DNA of 64,000 nucleotides from Acidobacteriota bacterium (GTDB taxonomy: Bacteria; Acidobacteriota; UBA6911). The translations under genes and the position numbers were made by a program. The stretch spans positions 4,864,001 to 4,928,000 of the forward strand of contig OY761556.1 in the NCBI GenBank assembly GCA_963664705.1, in the 5' to 3' direction. The notes beneath the pieces are model-generated. The model saw only the letters and a list, made by a program, of their open reading frames with translations. It was not told where the DNA came from and did not search any database. Shown piece by piece: positions 57,467 to 64,000 of the stretch (position 1 is the first letter of the stretch; the number at the start of each line of letters is the position of its first letter).

Positions 57467-57703
57467 TTAGTTCATTTTTTGGATAGAGGATATTTCCACG
57501 TTTGCGGAATTCAGCAGAGCGCGTACCCGCGGTTCATCGCACCAATCGAAGCGCAGCGCCATCCCGCAGTCGCTCGAAAACTCACGGGGTGTGGGAATTA
57601 ATTTGACCGAAAATCCATCCTTCAGCAGAAGCTTTTCCGAACGCAATGCCGCCGAACTTGTGTAAAACAGAATCACACCAAATATTTTGATCTCTTGAGG
57701 CAT
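57467..57703 (-). CDS. DUF3343 family protein (putative Se/S carrier)
   Basis: F.TSSAALRSEKLL..IPTPREFSSDCGMALRF. Confidence 0.88.
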   Translation of the reverse strand: MPQEIKIFGVILFYTSSAALRSEKLLLKDGFSVKLIPTPREFSSDCGMALRFDWCDEPRVRALLNSANVEISSIQKMN

Positions 57704-57709
57704 AGTGCA

Positions 57710-58852
57710 CTATTGAAGAATTTTATTTACCGCGTCGACCGCCAGATCCACTTCTTCCTTCGTTGCCTCCAATCCCAAGGCTAAACGAACAGTACCGTCA
57801 GGAAATGTCCCGATCGTACGATGAGCCGCCGGCGCACAGTGTAAGCCAACACGGCTCAGGATTCCAAATTCATCGTCCAGACGCAATCCAATTTCGGAGA
57901 CGCGATGCCGGGCTGCAGTGAAGGAAACAATCGATGTACGCCGAGTCACATCCGCAGGGCCGTAGATGTCGACTCCATCCATATTCGCCAACCCTTCAAT
58001 GAGCCGCCGGGTCAACTCAATTTCCCTTGCGCGAATCGCCTCAATTCCTCTTTCCATTATGTACTGAAGGCCGGCGCCAAGTCCGGCAATTCCCGGGCCG
58101 TTCAAAGTACCGCTTTCAAATTTATCCGGCAAATCTTCAGGCTGTATCTCGAATTCAGAACGGCTCCCGGTGCCTCCGCGCCAGAGGGGCTTCATCTCTT
58201 CAGGATGCGCTGCGCTTCCGATTATCAATCCGCCGGTTCCCTGCGGCCCCTGCAATCCCTTATGCCCGGTGAAGGCCAAGAGATCGATGCCCATGGCGCC
58301 CATATCGATGGGCACAACACCCGCCGTTTGCGCCGCATCGACCAGCAACAATGCGCCTGCTTGATGGACTATCCTCGCAATCTCATGAATCGGAAGAATG
58401 GTGCCAACGACATTGCTGGCATGAGTAACCACCACCATTCGGGTAGAGGGACGCAATGCACTGGCAAAAGACTCCGGAGCCACAGAGCCATCCCGCGCAC
58501 AGGATATCACCGTTAGTTCGATCCCTTTTTTTTCGAGATCCCGCAGCGGCCTCATGACGGCATTGTGTTCCATCGAGCTTGTGATGACATGATCTCCCGG
58601 TCCTAAAATCCCGTAGAGACACAGATTGATTGCCTGGGTAGCGTTGGCTGTGAAGATTACTTTCAGGGGATCCGGGGCATTGAAGAAATTCGCCAGAGTT
58701 TCGCGCACGTTGTAGACGATGCGTCCGGCCTCGATGGACAAACGGTGCCCGGCACGACCCGGATTGCCGCCCCTCACCAGGAAATCTGCCATCGCATGGA
58801 GAACAGCGGGCGGTTTCGGCCAGGAGGTTGCGGCATGATCGAGATATATCAT
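57710..58852 (-). CDS. Cysteine desulfurase/selenocysteine lyase-like class V aminotransferase
   Basis: MIYLDHAATSWPKP, NPGR.GH, DAAQTAG, FTGHKGLQGPQG, RVGLHCAP. Confidence 0.92.
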   Translation of the reverse strand: MIYLDHAATSWPKPPAVLHAMADFLVRGGNPGRAGHRLSIEAGRIVYNVRETLANFFNAPDPLKVIFTANATQAINLCLYGILGPGDHVITSSMEHNAVMRPLRDLEKKGIELTVISCARDGSVAPESFASALRPSTRMVVVTHASNVVGTILPIHEIARIVHQAGALLLVDAAQTAGVVPIDMGAMGIDLLAFTGHKGLQGPQGTGGLIIGSAAHPEEMKPLWRGGTGSRSEFEIQPEDLPDKFESGTLNGPGIAGLGAGLQYIMERGIEAIRAREIELTRRLIEGLANMDGVDIYGPADVTRRTSIVSFTAARHRVSEIGLRLDDEFGILSRVGLHCAPAAHRTIGTFPDGTVRLALGLEATKEEVDLAVDAVNKILQ

Positions 58853-58858
58853 GGGCCT

Positions 58859-59581
58859 TTATTCCAGACAATTTTGCGACATCAAGGTCGCTTCATAGAA
58901 GTTCACACCCAGATAGCACCAAGTGCCATTTCGTCGGTACTGCGCCAGACCGCGTTGGGTGCGGCCGTCAAGGTAAGAGAACAGGCCCTCGGAAAAAGCA
59001 TCATACTCGGCGGGCTGGAAAGGCCGTTCGACCCTGGCCCTGCGTCGGAGAGTAAATCCTTTCCTTTCGAACAGCGGCATGACTCTCAACGGAAAGGCCC
59101 AATCGGTAATCAGCATATATAGCCGTCCGCCGGGCATGAGATAGCGTTCGGCTTTCGCGGCCAGTCTGCGCAGGTATTTGAGCCCATCAGGTCCCCCATA
59201 CCTGGCTGCGAGAATCGGTTTCGGAGCAGGAAGCTGCGGAAGGGTTGTGATGATAATGTCAAACCGTTCCCCTCGGACCGGAGCAAAGAGGGATCCGACG
59301 CGTCCATCAACCCGCGTGATGCCATTCCGGGCGGCATTCCGGAGTGCGCAGGTTACGGCGGCGGGATCAATATCGGTAAGGACGATTTCTCCCGCTCCGC
59401 GCACCGCAGTGGAAAGACCATAGCCTCCCGCCCCGCAGCCGAGGTCAAGAACTCTGTCGCCGCGCCGAACGCGTATCGCCGCCGCAACCGTATCCGCATA
59501 CGGATCCGGATGATGCACCGGCGAGTCCACCGATAGGGAAATTGGGCTGTGGGGAGGAACCTGCAACTTAAATTTTTTCAT
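58859..59581 (-). CDS. Class I SAM methyltransferase (HemK-like fold)
   Basis: VLDLGCGAG, TDID, GSLF, FDIIITTLPQLP, YGGPDG; start at 59581 or 59608. Confidence 0.8.
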   Translation of the reverse strand: MKKFKLQVPPHSPISLSVDSPVHHPDPYADTVAAAIRVRRGDRVLDLGCGAGGYGLSTAVRGAGEIVLTDIDPAAVTCALRNAARNGITRVDGRVGSLFAPVRGERFDIIITTLPQLPAPKPILAARYGGPDGLKYLRRLAAKAERYLMPGGRLYMLITDWAFPLRVMPLFERKGFTLRRRARVERPFQPAEYDAFSEGLFSYLDGRTQRGLAQYRRNGTWCYLGVNFYEATLMSQNCLE

Positions 59582-59628
59582 AAAAAAATCTCTTTGATAA
59601 AAAAACACTCAATCGAATTACATAATGG

Positions 59629-60735
59629 CTAGGCTGTCGTTTTTTCTCTCATCAGCAAACCAAGAGTGACGCAAACAAGGATGCCGACGATCACCGCAAC
59701 CGGACCATAGGGACTGGGACCGGCCGGAGAGCTTGCCAGATTGAAATTGTGGGCAAATCCTGCGCCGACAAGCATGCCTATGACAAAGACGGCGGCATCG
59801 CCATCCCCTTCGCCGGACAAAAAGACCTGGCGGCCGGGACATCCTCCCGCCAGAGTAAATGCCAGGCCGGACAAAAGCATTCCGGCAAAATTCCACAATC
59901 CAAAGGTGTGCGCTATCGGCTGCTCCGCAAAACCGGGCTTAAATTGCCCCAACGCCAGGTTGGTTACAAATGAGGCCAGAACCAAAGCGATCACTCCGCT
60001 GAACAGATTCACATTTTTCAGGAGGATCAGATCCCGCACGGCTCCGACCGTACAGAATCGGCTGCGCTGCGCCAGAAACCCGATCAGCAAACCGGCAGCC
60101 AGGGAAATCCATATTCCCGCATGTTGGCTGCCGGGACCTTTCGCCGACAGAAATATCGGACCGATGGGTTTACCTTCCGGATCCCGCCCCAGTTGCGGCG
60201 CAAGGATCAATAAAAGCAGCAGGCCGATCATCAGAGCAGGCATTACCCATCCGAGCACATTAGAAGCCGGATGCGATCGCCCCAAGCTAAAGCCCATACG
60301 CAACAGGACTACGCCCACTGCAACCCCCGCTGCCAAACCGAGAATTCCCAGAAGTGCATTCCAGTCGCCGCCGCCCAGACGCAGAAAAGCGCGCCAGGGA
60401 CAACCCAGAAACACGAGAGCTCCGATCATGGAAAGAGCGCCCAGAAGAAATTTGATGAGCGGAGAAGATCCGGTGCGTGGACGGAATTCACGAAAGATCA
60501 ATGCCGCAACAAGAGATCCCAATATAAAACCGATGATCTCGGGCCGTATATATTGAACGGTGGCCGCGCGGTGAAAACCCAGGGCTCCCGCAATATCCCG
60601 GCTGAAACAGGCAACACAAACACCCATATTGGCAGGATTGCCCAGCTTGACCAAAATGGGAGCCAGCACACCCACCGCTAGCCCCGTGACAATTATTCCC
60701 CCGCGGGAAGACAGGAAACGGCCAATTGCGGACAT
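59629..60735 (-). CDS. yedE: YedE-family putative selenium-metabolism transporter (YeeE/YedE)
   Basis: GNPANMGVCVACFSRD, YIRPEI, FLGCPWR, QRSRFC, GGCPGRQ; AAGGAA RBS. Confidence 0.92.
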   Translation of the reverse strand: MSAIGRFLSSRGGIIVTGLAVGVLAPILVKLGNPANMGVCVACFSRDIAGALGFHRAATVQYIRPEIIGFILGSLVAALIFREFRPRTGSSPLIKFLLGALSMIGALVFLGCPWRAFLRLGGGDWNALLGILGLAAGVAVGVVLLRMGFSLGRSHPASNVLGWVMPALMIGLLLLLILAPQLGRDPEGKPIGPIFLSAKGPGSQHAGIWISLAAGLLIGFLAQRSRFCTVGAVRDLILLKNVNLFSGVIALVLASFVTNLALGQFKPGFAEQPIAHTFGLWNFAGMLLSGLAFTLAGGCPGRQVFLSGEGDGDAAVFVIGMLVGAGFAHNFNLASSPAGPSPYGPVAVIVGILVCVTLGLLMREKTTA

Positions 60736-60821: not shown

Positions 60822-61667
60822 CTATGAAATAGCATCTTGAGTAATTGGCAAATACCCGACCGCATCGGACCGGCATCGCGTGCAATGATGCATCTGCCGG
60901 ACATAGGGACTCGCCCGCTGTCTCAACCATCTCATCTTTTCCTCACTGGGAGCCGCTATGCCCGCCATTTCTGTTCCAGCCAGAGGGATCAACGGCAGAA
61001 AATTCATCAAGTCCACCTGGAGGTTGCCCAGGTTCTTGGCAAGAAACGGCAAATGGTGTTCATTGATTCCAGGAACAACAACAGTGTTGATCTTGACGAT
61101 GATTCCGGCAGCTTTCAAACGACCGATGGCTTCGAGCTGCGTAGATATCAGGCCATGAGCCGCTTCCATACCTCTGAAGATTCTTCCGGCAATCGAAATC
61201 CACGGATGCAGCCGCGCCCCGATGAAGGGATCGATTGCATTGACCGTGATCGTTACATAGCCGACGTTCAAGGCGGACAAGTGCGGGATAGAGCCCATCA
61301 CATTCAATCCATTGGTGGAGACGCACAAAGCAATGTCCGGATTTTTCCTGCGAATAAGCTCAAAGGTCTTCAAGGTGCATTCCGGATCACAGAAGGCATC
61401 TCCCGGTCCCGCCACCGCCGCTACCGAGATGTGCGGCGTTTCTCGGAGTACCTGTTCCAGCCGCTCGGATGCTTCTTCCGGGCTCAACACGCCGGTGCAG
61501 ACACCGGGTCGGTTTTCATTGGGACAATCATGATCGCGGCGGCAATACGCACATTGGATATTGCAGGACGCAGCTACAGGCAGATGCACCCGCCCATATT
61601 TCCCTTTGGCCCCGGCATAAAAGCAGGGATGAATTTTCTGTTGCGTAGGCACGATGGCAGATGACAT
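60822..61667 (-). CDS. nifB: NifB-family radical SAM (SAM domain only)
   Basis: HPC, CNIQCAYC, ENRP, AGPG, TITVN and CTRCRSDAVG are all present; no NifX-like domain. Confidence 0.85.
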   Translation of the reverse strand: MSSAIVPTQQKIHPCFYAGAKGKYGRVHLPVAASCNIQCAYCRRDHDCPNENRPGVCTGVLSPEEASERLEQVLRETPHISVAAVAGPGDAFCDPECTLKTFELIRRKNPDIALCVSTNGLNVMGSIPHLSALNVGYVTITVNAIDPFIGARLHPWISIAGRIFRGMEAAHGLISTQLEAIGRLKAAGIIVKINTVVVPGINEHHLPFLAKNLGNLQVDLMNFLPLIPLAGTEMAGIAAPSEEKMRWLRQRASPYVRQMHHCTRCRSDAVGYLPITQDAIS

Positions 61668-62471
61668 TTACGCTTTCCTCCCAGGGCGCCCGATGTGAAT
61701 GGCGTCACGAGGGCAAAGGGATGTGCAGTCGCAGCAGTTTGTGCAGTTGACCTCTGCAGGGCGAGTTCCCATTTCACAAACTTGAAGGCATTGATTGCAG
61801 CCGTCGCATTTGTCGTCTTTGTAAACCTTAAACAGGGAAAGCGATTTGATAATTTCCAATGCGCCGCCCGTGGGACAGGCAAACCGGCACCAGGCGTTGG
61901 CAAGGAGCAGTCCCAGCAGGACGAATCCCAAAACAAAAACGGACCGGATCAGCCAGAGCGGATGCGCGTTCTTGAACGTAAACGCGAACGAAGCGAAGAA
62001 CTCTCCGATTCGAATCGGCACAGCTTCACGCGGTTGTCCATAAGGCAGCCAAATGCAGAGCGCCACCAGCAGCCCGATATACTTAAAATAGGGTGCGGTC
62101 TTCGTAAAACCGTTTCTGATTCGCAGCTTTGCCGACGATGCCATTCCAAGCAGTTGATGGAGTAATCCTCCGGGACAGAACCAACTGCAAAAAGCCCTGC
62201 CAAAAACCAGCGCGGAGATAGGTAGCAGGAGCCAAAAGCCCCAGAACATCGTGAGAAGCCTGCCATGACAGGTAATGACCGGGCAGTTCTGGCAGCTTAC
62301 GTACGGCACTATGAAAGGGCAGCGAAAAATGCCGTAAAAGGACCACTGCCCAAGAACAGCCAGCGAAGCGCACTGAGCAACCCGACGCCACCGGGTAACC
62401 GGCGCTGTTTTGCTTTCCTCCCCTGACAATTCGTTCATCACTGCAAGCTGAGCCACGTTGACCTTAGACAT
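61668..62471 (-). CDS. Membrane polyferredoxin (NapH/MauN-like 4Fe-4S binding protein)
   Basis: CP...SCQNCP..TC, FCSWFCP, WCRFACP, CDGCNQCLQVC, CTNCCDCTSLCP. Confidence 0.85.
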   Translation of the reverse strand: MSKVNVAQLAVMNELSGEESKTAPVTRWRRVAQCASLAVLGQWSFYGIFRCPFIVPYVSCQNCPVITCHGRLLTMFWGFWLLLPISALVFGRAFCSWFCPGGLLHQLLGMASSAKLRIRNGFTKTAPYFKYIGLLVALCIWLPYGQPREAVPIRIGEFFASFAFTFKNAHPLWLIRSVFVLGFVLLGLLLANAWCRFACPTGGALEIIKSLSLFKVYKDDKCDGCNQCLQVCEMGTRPAEVNCTNCCDCTSLCPRDAIHIGRPGRKA

Positions 62472-63333
62472 CTTTCACCCCCAGTTTCTCAACCAAACGA
62501 CGCCCTTCATCCGACATGGCGGGGATAAAGCCTGCGGACTGAAAGAATCCCTGTCCTTCCTCCGACAAAATGAAATCCACAAAATGATTGGCCAGTGCCT
62601 TGTCGCGTGCGTTTTTCATCACGCCAATGGTGAAGGTCAGCGGACCGGCAGGGAAAAATTCCTCAGGGATTGGAAGAACCTCTACTTTTCCGCTGAAGAG
62701 AGGCATCCGCGTCAACCTGCATTCAACCACGGACACATCCCCTTTTCCCTTTACCAGATCCTCCATCGTGCGCTGGACGCAGCTGCCTTTGATTACAGCA
62801 TTTTTCATGGCCTGATCCAGAACTCCAGCCTTTTTCAGCAGCCCGGTGACCGCTTCTCCGCCCGGCGCTGAGGCATCGGGAGCAAGAATTACCCTGACCC
62901 CCTGCTTTGCCAGGTCCTGTATAGCTGAAATGCCCGCGGGGTTGCCTTTCGGCGTGACCAACACATAGGAAGTAAAGCAGAGCGGCTTAAAGAACGACAT
63001 TTTGTTCGCGCTGCGCAGCTTCTGGGCCAACGCGAGAACTCTTCCCGCAAATACCTCAGTGGTTGCGCTGCCCAAAAGCGATTTGCCTAAGGCGGCGGCA
63101 AAAGCACCGGTAAAAGCGATCTCAATTCCGGTCTTTGTCCGGTATTGCTTGTTTGCAGGAATAAAGGCTTCCGCCAGTCCACCACAAGCCCAGACCTGAA
63201 GCGTATTCTGCCCAAACGATAGTGATTCCGAACCGGCTGCGGCAACCGTTGCGCCTGCTGCGGCCCCGGTGGCGACAGTCAAAAAGGCCCTGCGGTTCAA
63301 GAGGGATTGCGGTACTGTTTCAGTCATATGCAT
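62464..63333 (-). CDS. ModA-like substrate-binding protein with Tat signal
   Basis: NRRAFL Tat motif; LQVWACGGLAEAF; PKGNPAGI...DLA; FILSEEGQGFF..GF. Confidence 0.8.
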   Translation of the reverse strand: MHMTETVPQSLLNRRAFLTVATGAAAGATVAAAGSESLSFGQNTLQVWACGGLAEAFIPANKQYRTKTGIEIAFTGAFAAALGKSLLGSATTEVFAGRVLALAQKLRSANKMSFFKPLCFTSYVLVTPKGNPAGISAIQDLAKQGVRVILAPDASAPGGEAVTGLLKKAGVLDQAMKNAVIKGSCVQRTMEDLVKGKGDVSVVECRLTRMPLFSGKVEVLPIPEEFFPAGPLTFTIGVMKNARDKALANHFVDFILSEEGQGFFQSAGFIPAMSDEGRRLVEKLGVKDV

Positions 63334-63394
63334 TCTCGCCTTTGAAAAGGTCGCGTAATCGAGTCTTAATTAATGGTGTTGAGACGCGTTTTAT

Positions 63395-63553
63395 CTAAAC
63401 CTGCGCATCTCCAAGTTCAGCCCGGACCATATTGCTGGTTTGAGAAAGGAACGATGCTAATTCGGAATGCCCGTGAGATCGGCCCGCCCACAGATTCGTC
63501 CAACAACCCGGTCAGATGACGATCCTGTTTCACGTAAAGCCGAATACGTTCAT
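63395..63553 (-). other. Candidate leader ORF with two in-frame UGA codons (possible Sec)
   Basis: AAGGG-8nt-ATG; MNVFGFT*NRIVI*PGCWT...AQV-TAG; a hairpin follows each UGA. Confidence 0.3.
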
Positions 63554-63592
63554 TACGAAAGCCCTTGCGGATTCAATATAGTTAAGAAAATC

Positions 63593-63628
63593 CTTATACA
63601 TATATGCTATCTATATGTCAAATAGATA
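63593..63628 (-). promoter_or_regulatory. Sigma70 promoter of the selenium-associated operon with overlapping LysR-type palindrome
   Basis: Minus strand TTGACA(63616-21)-17nt-TATAAG(63593-98); palindrome tatctat-7-atagata (63608-63628) centred on the -35. Confidence 0.7.
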
Positions 63629-63701: not shown

Positions 63702-64000
63702 ATGGAACTGAGATATATCGAGATATTCTGCGCAGTGGTAGAACTGAAGAGCTTTTCCAAGGCCGCCCAGGCGTTGCATCTGACTCAACCGACGATCAGC
63801 GTGCATATCAAAGCCCTGGAAGACGAGTTTTCGACCAAGCTTCTGGACCGTCTTGGCAGAACGATCCTGCCGACCCAGGATGGCGAAATTCTTTACAGGT
63901 ATGCAAAAGAGATCGTCACTCTGAAAGAGAATGCGCGCAAGGCGATGGAAAGGGTCACCGGCACGGTGAGCGGCAAGCTTACTATCGGCGCAAGCACGAT
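63702..64000 (+). CDS. LysR-family regulator (selenium-metabolism-associated type by context), 3'-truncated
   Basis: Own translation: MELRYIEIFCAVVELKSFSKAAQALHLTQPTISVHIKALEDEFSTKLLDRLGR...GKLTIGAST; GAGGG RBS. Confidence 0.9.
   Translation, partial: MELRYIEIFCAVVELKSFSKAAQALHLTQPTISVHIKALEDEFSTKLLDRLGRTILPTQDGEILYRYAKEIVTLKENARKAMERVTGTVSGKLTIGAST

Follow-up and report, generated by a model that had tools for sequence, protein, structure and literature searches.

A conserved UGA-ended leader with a SECIS-like hairpin, a predicted ribosome-read sensor of selenocysteine supply in Acidobacteriota and Desulfobacterota

On the minus strand of contig OY761556.1 of an Acidobacteriota bacterium (GCA_963664705.1), between a predicted promoter and the first gene of a likely selenium-uptake operon, lies a short open reading frame (ORF) with two in-frame UGA codons. 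It stands within the 64,000 nucleotides (nt) analysed here, called the window below, and raises the question of whether such a frame encodes a tiny selenoprotein, senses the supply of selenocysteine (Sec) or arose by chance. A previous sequence-only reading had proposed a selenopeptide of 52 amino acids (aa) with two Sec, or a leader that senses Sec-tRNA and SelB and controls the operon, and had added chance as a caveat. The best explanation as a whole is probably a ribosome-mediated attenuator that tests the supply of Sec-tRNA and leaves the genes behind it on when Sec is scarce. That the leader senses the Sec supply is very likely, and, if it does, expression under Sec shortage is the likely direction of control; the exact wiring of ribosome stalling and Rho can be put forward only tentatively. 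The sensing leader is supported by conservation, by the geometry of a Sec insertion sequence (SECIS), by covariation and by the downstream genes.

The leader and its conserved parts

The window copy comprises the following features.

63562..63566, minus strand: Shine-Dalgarno-like AAGGG of the leader ORF, 8 nt 5' of the ATG, seen in the sequence
63530..63553, minus strand: leader ORF M-N-V-F-G-F-T-UGA, from the sequence and the family profile over 89 copies
63512..63529, minus strand: predicted read-through tail N-R-I-V-I-stop, the stop being UGA2 (63512-63514) inside the 5' arm of the hairpin
63499..63516, minus strand: SECIS-like upper hairpin UCUGAC-CGGGUU-GUUGGA, first loop G at +21 after UGA1
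63467..63485, minus strand: 3' strand of helix P1, pairing with leader codons at 63537-63553, the AUG included in this copy; duplex -16.1 kcal/mol
63428..63487, minus strand: C-rich, G-poor tract (18 C, 13 G), weaker than the family average, a predicted Rho loading region

The signals on which the earlier reading was built are all in place (AAGGG 63566-63562, ATG 63553, UGA1 63532-63530, UGA2 63514-63512 and TAG 63397-63395), and the quoted peptide of 52 aa does result if both UGAs are read through. As judged from related leaders, the conserved unit is a leader of 7-8 codons ending F-G-F-T-UGA, with a SECIS-like hairpin and the covarying helix P1. Start, FGFT, UGA, hairpin spacing, an early downstream stop, P1 and the C-rich tract are conserved jointly, and UGA1 (63530-63532, minus strand) is the predicted point of decision between Sec and stop.

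The working set holds 89 distinct copies from Acidobacteriota, Desulfobacterota and metagenomes, namely the window copy, 4 selected by protein, 10 by hairpin, 52 from metagenomes and 22 divergent ones. An ortholog of the first gene of the operon was found in 5 of 29 same-genus genomes, and the leaders ahead of these genes, chosen by the downstream protein only, read MMRVFGFT, MTCSFGFT, MAYEFGFT, MTCDSRFT and MKPVFTF up to the first UGA. FGFT-UGA and the hairpin occur together in three of the five, the fourth having SRFT-UGA and the fifth VFTF-UGA; the two leaders without FGFT were left out of the 89 (one gave an E-value of 0.99 with the covariance model mentioned below, the other no match). 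The Gly, Phe and Thr codons of the same-genus leaders differ by synonymous third-position changes. What the family keeps is the stretch from ATG to FGFT-UGA1, the upper hairpin (63516-63499) and P1, whereas the length of 52 aa, UGA2, the U-P-G-C motif and the second hairpin are not retained; in two of the closest orthologs a TAG or TAA stands within 3-4 codons of UGA1, so that the 52-aa frame is lost.

A search made with the hairpin only covered 401 genomes, all of the class to which a Desulfobacterales genome belongs, and gave 10 matches in 9 of them. All ten are preceded by M-x-x-[DCE]-[FS]-G-F-[TS]-UGA and never by TAA or TAG at this place, the G and second F being present in 10/10 and the T in 9/10; the UGA is fixed in each of them at the spacing of a SECIS, where it would be decoded as Sec. 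A relaxed pattern of FGFT-UGA and the 5' arm gave 21 matches in 20 of 401 Desulfobacterota genomes, compared to one for its control, with an in-frame ATG or GTG 8-9 codons upstream in 21/21. Similarly, a covariance model built from 67 copies found seven more divergent copies in 150 further Desulfobacterota genomes.

Metagenomes scanned for FGFT-UGA with the 5' arm of the hairpin gave at least 120 loci. Neither an in-frame ATG nor the 3' arm was part of the pattern; among the matches listed, both were present in 65 of 99 non-repeat loci, neither in 28, the ATG only in 5 and the arm only in 1, and a purine-rich ribosome-site motif precedes the ATG in 64 of the 65 listed loci of the leader class. 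Thirty-four of the 120 listed matches were classed as 'other', of which L193 was kept in the alignment, and L134, which has no 3' arm, was excluded from alignment A2. Another 21 of the 120 (L116, L119, L123, L124 and 17 more) belong to a separate repeat and were set aside as unrelated: it has about 20 nt in common with the FGFT-UGA segment, no fixed start or frame and no shared neighbours, and lies in gene-poor DNA.

A supposed second copy in the source genome was rejected, as the regular-expression match falls on the antisense strand of a biotin carboxyl carrier gene and the window copy is the only one that the covariance model recovers. A degenerate tRNA-Sec in the leader region was likewise discarded after alignment of this region with the tRNAs of the source genome: 3 of 300 shuffles reached its best score, in one of 12 comparisons, and no cloverleaf was found. 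Different short ORFs ending V-[FY]-T-F-UGA stand about 360 nt before a ModA-like gene in L006 and L070 and about 970 nt before it in L085; the one in L006 has a downstream hairpin and does not match the covariance model. Either chance or a second subtype of the leader may account for these ORFs.

The hairpin looks like a SECIS in shape and spacing, from which SelB binding and Sec insertion are predicted. A rule asking for a stem of at least 5 pairs and a G at the start of a loop beginning at +17 to +24 is passed by 65 of 67 leaders and by 5 of 7 authentic Sec sites of the source genome, and loosely by UGA2. In 45 of 67 copies the first loop G lies at +21, with a range of 18-23 over the copies. 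The five Sec genes of the source genome that pass the rule have it at +20 to +24 (+21 in selD and mvhD), and 6 of 7 distinct selD SECIS of the fetched loci have it at +21. As in known bacterial SECIS, the stem-loop is found 3' of an in-frame UGA at the authentic distance, with selA, selB, selC and selD present. The stem shifts between subfamilies from CUAAC/GUUAG to CUACC/GGUAG, and one of its pairs is A-U in 20 and C-G in 21 of 42 rows of alignment A3 (covariation 0.253 vs 0.125 when shuffled, 0/500 as high), the slid controls being far lower; in this alignment the change amounts to one or a few events, not 20. Both stems drawn in the earlier reading can be formed as stated, the UGA1 stem being part of the minimum-energy fold, whereas the lower stem and the second hairpin are not conserved. 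No Rfam match to SECIS or any other family was obtained over the leader in the window and six homologous loci; according to passages of 10.64898/2026.09.15.751765, most of the bacterial SECIS-like loci found there had no Rfam match.

Helix P1, which was absent from the earlier reading, pairs leader codons 3-6 with RNA about 40-55 nt past the UGA over 11 base pairs, and is therefore a helix overlapping the leader that a ribosome could disrupt, as in leader-peptide attenuators. Over 67 rows it is paired in 91-94% of cells, with changes on both sides, mostly at codon third positions; column 28 holds CG 30, UA 24 and UG 6, and 0/500 shuffles scored as high. The duplex has a mean of -16 kcal/mol, and in 84 of 89 copies it is stronger than that of two control windows further downstream. 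Under constrained folding, the strand at +40 to +52 has a mean unpaired probability of about 0.1 in free RNA and of about 0.6 with a ribosome on the leader. From alignment A2, RNAalifold retrieved the SECIS stem and, of the 11 pairs of P1, the inner 5. Other switch helices (loop with CCUG, 3' arm with CUGAC, GACGA with UCGUC) pair in 60-100% of rows with little covariation and were retained as possibilities only.

Beyond P1 the RNA is rich in C. At +45..+105, C exceeds G in 88/89 copies compared to 880/1892 upstream intergenic windows of the source genome, and is at least 1.5-fold over G in 74/89 copies compared to 294/1892 background windows. A terminator-like hairpin was seen in 2 of 88 copies and none on the minus strand of the window leader. 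The leader thus has the C-rich tract of a Rho-dependent leader without an intrinsic terminator, in a genome with two rho genes, base composition being only a proxy for a Rho site.

Genes behind the leader and the direction of control

Target genes were counted in the 71 copies with at least 500 nt downstream, with a reference protein set derived from these loci. Counted by the first recognised gene, 23 copies lead a double-cubane reductase, 7 a small unnamed protein, 6 a MauE-family protein, 5 a ModA-like protein, 6 hdrA, 5 selD, 4 mvhD and 3 fdhA, with others or none making up 12. One of fdhA, hdrA, hdrC and mvhD comes first in 15/71, and selD, yedE or selB lies within the fetched span in 24/71; yedF, PstS-like binding proteins and a MauE/rhodanese pair are also led by the leader. 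In one copy, tRNA-Sec and selB (selC-selB) follow directly 3', and a tRNA gene in this position points to transcriptional control.

In all 11 leader-led fdhA, hdrA and mvhD genes compared, from 9 genomes, TGC or TGT stands at a position that is TGA in a paralog of the same genome. The cysteine (Cys) and Sec members of these pairs are 49-87% identical over the compared part, and none of 12 Sec paralogs compared has a leader within 1500 nt. Among the genes behind the leader are thus some that supply Sec (selD, yedE, yedF, selC-selB) and some that spare it (Cys-type fdhA, hdrA and mvhD), as expected of the targets of a leader peptide, and it is from these targets, selenium supply on one side and Cys back-ups on the other, that the direction of control, on when Sec is short, is deduced. 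Regulation of comparable genes has been reported elsewhere. Passages of PMC11097638 state that selenium depletion in Methanococcus raises the Cys isoforms along with yedE, a ModA-like and a PstS-like gene, and passages of PMC3892789 that in Treponema primitia selenium limitation raises fdhF-Cys transcripts and the behaviour of the ribosome at the Sec UGA alters transcription.

Several loci deserve mention in their own right. The double-cubane cluster reductase (NF040772) and its activase are found behind the leader in L128, L131, L142, L249, L281, L298 and others, a position that suggests a role of the reductase in selenium acquisition. A Cys-rich protein of about 70-95 aa, without Pfam or NCBIfam match, lies between leader and selD or yedE in L194 (27-311, minus strand) and at 13 other loci. 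At G563:C1:35687-45351, a Sec-type hdrA-mvhD is divergent to a leader-led Cys-type fdhA, and behind this fdhA comes a Cys-type hdrA that has a leader as well; G530 and G622 each carry two leaders 3 kb apart. Around the Cys codon of a leader-led Cys-type fdhA (L290:2770-2828, plus strand), a sub-threshold match to SECIS_3 (E-value 1e-4) is possibly the vestige of a Sec ancestor.

How the leader may act, and what else it could be

We infer the translation of the leader, the insertion of Sec, the direction of control and the role of Rho from the arrangement described above. A ribosome would enter the growing transcript while the 3' strand of P1 is still to be made, and arrive at the UGA. Without SelB-GTP-Sec-tRNA on the hairpin, it would dwell there, the F-G-F-T end of the nascent chain slowing release factor 2 (RF2); P1 would stay open, the ribosome would sit beside the C-rich tract, Rho would be excluded and the operon transcribed. 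With Sec-tRNA available, Sec would be inserted and the ribosome would proceed 2-10 codons into the hairpin, end at a TAA or TAG and leave, upon which P1 would close over the first leader codons and block re-loading, and Rho would terminate on the naked C-rich RNA. In its most specific form, held with somewhat more doubt than the wiring in general, an eight-residue F-G-F-T arrest peptide would hold the ribosome at the UGA until SelB brings Sec-tRNA, forming a Rho-controlled switch.

Several observations weigh against this explanation. On the side of sampling, 72 of the 89 copies were chosen with a pattern that forces the FGFT codons and many are close kin, so that the counts overstate independence, and the backwards hairpin pattern gave 5 matches in the same 401 genomes compared to 10 for the forward one. 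Most ModA-like operons have no leader (one strong and one weak match in 78 loci searched of 80 fetched). Although selA occurs in 13/14 and 20/20 leader genomes, completely so where genomes are near-complete, this co-occurrence is uninformative because the background is about 95% (28/30 and 68/71). As for structure, the SECIS rule is also passed by 155 of 1542 ordinary TGA stops (about 10%) and failed by 2 of the 7 authentic Sec sites, and the 5-bp stem has a well conserved rival fold, in which the GG of the loop pairs with the following bases, so the SECIS fold may not prevail. The 3' strand of P1, once freed, has no partner helix that stands out (pairing fractions of 0.7-0.9 with little covariation), and P1 covers the start of the C-rich tract, which fits a reversed wiring at least equally well. 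Among the targets, the commonest first gene (23/71) is the double-cubane reductase, which is not known to act in selenium metabolism, selD is often itself a selenoprotein, and the same genomes also hold Cys-type mvhD copies without a leader.

The reversed wiring is the alternative that survives best, although it is an unlikely one. Sensor and direction would be the same; without Sec-tRNA, fast release at the UGA would let P1 mask the start of the Rho site and the genes be on, and slow Sec decoding with read-through would hold P1 open and melt the hairpin, so that Rho acts and the genes are off. This judgement concerns the wiring only, Sec sensing being common to both explanations. The covariation of P1 and the modelled folding, with the C-rich strand at +40 to +52 paired in free RNA and mostly unpaired once a ribosome is placed on the leader, agree with such a scheme. 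It leaves unexplained, however, why F-G-F-T is conserved at the amino-acid level, as it is in the ten copies chosen without that pattern, and most of the C-rich tract lies outside P1.

A different and improbable explanation is that the hairpin is a binding site for SelB-GTP-Sec-tRNA and acts as an RNA switch without Sec insertion, in the manner reported for the 5' region of E. coli selAB, the ORF only positioning a ribosome. The SECIS-like loop and its spacing, the copy ahead of selC-selB and the unconserved read-through tail would all suit it, but in most copies 140-480 nt separate the hairpin from the place where the next gene's match starts, and it does not cover a ribosome site there, and a switch of this kind would not need an in-frame UGA fixed at decoding distance.

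Less probable still is that the leader works as a TnaC-type arrest peptide, responding to another small molecule or to the level of RF2, in which case the hairpin would be structural and no SECIS. Among release factors, UGA is read by RF2 only, and the UGA is invariant, the last four residues are kept at the amino-acid level and Rfam finds no SECIS here. Against this, the loop G stands at the same distance as in authentic SECIS of the same genomes, and the targets are selenium-supply genes and Cys copies of selenoenzymes.

That the product itself matters, as a selenopeptide of 13 or 52 aa (a redox peptide, a selenium store or the precursor of a radical SAM enzyme), is very improbable. The frame is indeed open over 52 codons with both UGAs read, UGA2 passes the loose hairpin rule in the window copy and the operon includes a radical SAM gene. 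Among the 89 copies, however, the triplet equivalent to UGA2 is TAA in 65, TAC or TGC in 21 and TGA in 3, and since a UGA stands there in frame in only 2, UGA2 is best seen as a stop inside the hairpin and not as a second Sec codon; the read-through product here would therefore be 13 aa. The U-P-G-C (UxxC) motif occurs in one copy of the 89, the window itself, and the peptide has no family match in NCBIfam. Neither the sequence nor the frame of the tail is conserved, and its length varies: the first in-frame stop after UGA1 falls within 10 codons in 82/89 copies and is TAA in 48, TAG in 33 and TGA in 7, with none within 60 codons in one. The early stop in two of the closest orthologs and the wide differences among downstream genes also speak against a role for the peptide, so that the 52-aa selenopeptide with two Sec of the earlier reading is not supported.

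Finally, a chance ORF in an ordinary 5' untranslated region can practically be dismissed: short ORFs and loose hairpins are common, and the region 63334-63590 (257 nt, minus strand) has a folding z-score of 0.00, so that folding and the loose SECIS rule alone do not lift the window leader above chance, but its conservation does: two phyla share the start, the length, the four final residues, the UGA, the spacing of the hairpin and P1, compensatory changes included.

The window operon, related systems and meaning

The ribosome-mediated attenuator preferred here would act on the following locus, in which the genes of the minus strand form a likely selenium-uptake operon.

63702..64000, plus strand: divergent gene for a LysR-type regulator, 5' part only, matching NF040786 best (selenium metabolism-associated LysR; 99 aa, E-value 5e-36)
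63593..63621, minus strand: predicted sigma-70-type promoter TTGACA, 17-nt spacer, TATAAG, found by eye in the sequence
62464..63333, minus strand: first gene, ModA-like substrate-binding protein with a twin-arginine-like signal (PF13531, E-value 5e-44; TIGR01256 below cut-off)
61668..62471, minus strand: NapH/NosR-like 4Fe-4S membrane protein (matches below NCBIfam cut-offs)
60822..61667, minus strand: NifB-like radical SAM protein (TIGR01290, E-value 1e-84, below cut-off)
59629..60735, minus strand: YedE family putative selenium transporter (TIGR04112, 493.6 bits, cut-off 200)
58859..59608, minus strand: HemK-like methyltransferase (below cut-offs)
57710..58852, minus strand: cysteine desulfurase family protein close to selenocysteine lyase SclA (TIGR01977 above cut-off; NF040779, E-value 9e-125, below cut-off)
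57467..57703, minus strand: putative selenium/sulfur carrier protein (PF11823, 72 bits, cut-off 25)

The named relatives that come closest to the first gene belong to Acidobacteriota, followed by Desulfobacterota, and no internal TGA for Sec was found in this ModA-like family in the 80 loci checked. The LysR gene runs beyond the end of the window, its complete ORF being 296 aa, and it is because of this truncation that the NF040786 match stays under the whole-protein cut-off. The promoter predicted earlier ahead of the leader is present by eye (-35 TTGACA at 63621-63616, TATAAG at 63598-63593); it was not among the output of a promoter scan of the window, because the scan requires a T at position 6 of the -10 element. 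A palindrome at 63599-63617 (minus strand) overlaps the spacer of this predicted promoter, beside the divergent LysR gene, and TTGACATAT is found in 4 of 5 orthologous loci as well, together with a related inverted repeat near a LysR gene in L002-L005. The palindrome is a possible LysR operator, which would give the operon two layers of selenium control.

The source genome carries two copies each of selA, selB, selD and full-length tRNA-Sec, so that the Sec machinery whose presence the earlier reading had asked for is there in duplicate. A second selB-selA-selD-tRNA-Sec cluster lies at G000:C1:3072623-3078309; the selD in the cluster has no in-frame TGA and the other selD (2046792-2047721) has one, which points to two Sec systems in this genome. 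Self-comparison of the genome gave 13 candidate Cys/TGA pairs. Family and motif led to the acceptance of 7 of them as authentic Sec sites, which lie in selD, fdhA, two mvhD genes and the genes of a rhodanese, a methyltransferase and a thioredoxin-like protein. Outside these seven, an in-frame TGA at G000:C1:2244737 (plus strand), in a P-P-G-stop-E-E context and aligned to the Cys of a paralog, possibly marks an extra selenoprotein. ARAGORN also called a tRNA of 72 nt, whose anticodon is TCA and whose acceptor stem is broken (G000:C1:1625651-1625722, minus strand), probably a pseudogene or a false call; if real, this short UGA-reading tRNA would bear on UGA read-through. Three tRNA-Cys and one odd tRNA at 2597966-2598055 are present as well.

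Among known systems, the 5' region of selAB in E. coli reportedly carries a SECIS-like element, said to have been described by Thanbichler and Bock in 2002, through which SelB and Sec-tRNA exert feedback by translational repression near the ribosome site. The leader described here similarly places a SECIS-type RNA upstream of selenium-pathway genes; unlike the selAB element, which is said to have no leader ORF, it has a conserved ORF with an in-frame UGA, its hairpin is far from the next start (in the window it ends about 165 nt before the first ATG), and it also precedes a tRNA gene. In leaders of the TnaC and MgtL type, attenuation is Rho-dependent, and a UGA-terminated ORF with a conserved peptide end is followed by a long spacer and a C-rich, G-poor tract without intrinsic terminator. 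The present leader resembles them in its UGA end, conserved peptide end, long untranslated spacer, C-rich tract and lack of an intrinsic terminator, and differs from them in that its peptide has 7-8 residues, its stalling is presumed, and its predicted signal is Sec-tRNA acting via a SECIS instead of a metabolite in the exit tunnel.

Attenuators of the trpL type, as described in passages of PMC3892789, have in common with the leader a short ORF with a ribosome site, predicted to be translated here, an RNA helix over the leader codons and a place ahead of genes for supplying or sparing an amino acid, and the fixed UGA would correspond to their sensed codon; the short upstream ORF with start codon and ribosome-binding site is conserved here too. 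By contrast, the leader has a single UGA, where termination competes with a Sec insertion that needs a SECIS, and no run of control codons; intrinsic terminators are found in 2/88 copies only, no clear antiterminator was seen, and the targets include selenium-free isoenzymes. In fdhF-Sec of Treponema primitia (passages of PMC3892789), a ribosome at a Sec UGA with its SECIS likewise changes downstream transcription, and a Sec/Cys pair is involved; the UGA there lies inside the selenoprotein gene and lack of selenium shortens the transcript, whereas here it lies in an upstream mini-ORF ahead of non-Sec genes, with the opposite predicted sign. As for HrsM, a LysR protein of Methanococcus maripaludis, passages of PMC11097638 name Cys-type hdrA and vhuD-type genes, yedE, ModA-like and PstS-like genes among those that rise when selenium is scarce, and a LysR gene is adjacent here too. 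HrsM is an archaeal protein repressor whose signal is called unknown in these passages, whereas the sensor predicted here is an RNA leader read by the ribosome. A literature search, which covered few subscription papers, returned no description of a UGA/SECIS leader attenuator, and the supplements of PMC8632094 (1 file) and PMC6429828 (11 files) contained no selenium terms.

Passages of PMC11097638 call the mode of selenium sensing unknown even for the archaeal case that is best studied, and state that no organism is known to have a dedicated selenium transporter. If the explanation given here is true, the leader would be an attenuator for the 21st amino acid and the missing selenium sensor behind the switching of Sec and Cys isoenzymes and behind selenium scavenging, in hosts that include sulfate reducers, syntrophs and anaerobic Acidobacteriota. 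With a leader of 100 nt and one decision codon, selenium sensing becomes testable by point changes in a reporter, and a portable Sec-tRNA biosensor of this kind would be useful for selenoprotein expression work. As a marker of a regulon, the leader would designate as candidate selenium-acquisition proteins the ModA-like and PstS-like proteins, YedE and YedF, the SclA-like lyase, the double-cubane reductase with its activase and the MauE/rhodanese pair. In anaerobes central to the carbon and sulfur cycles, Fdh, Hdr and Mvh copies with Cys would be the predicted starvation isoenzymes.

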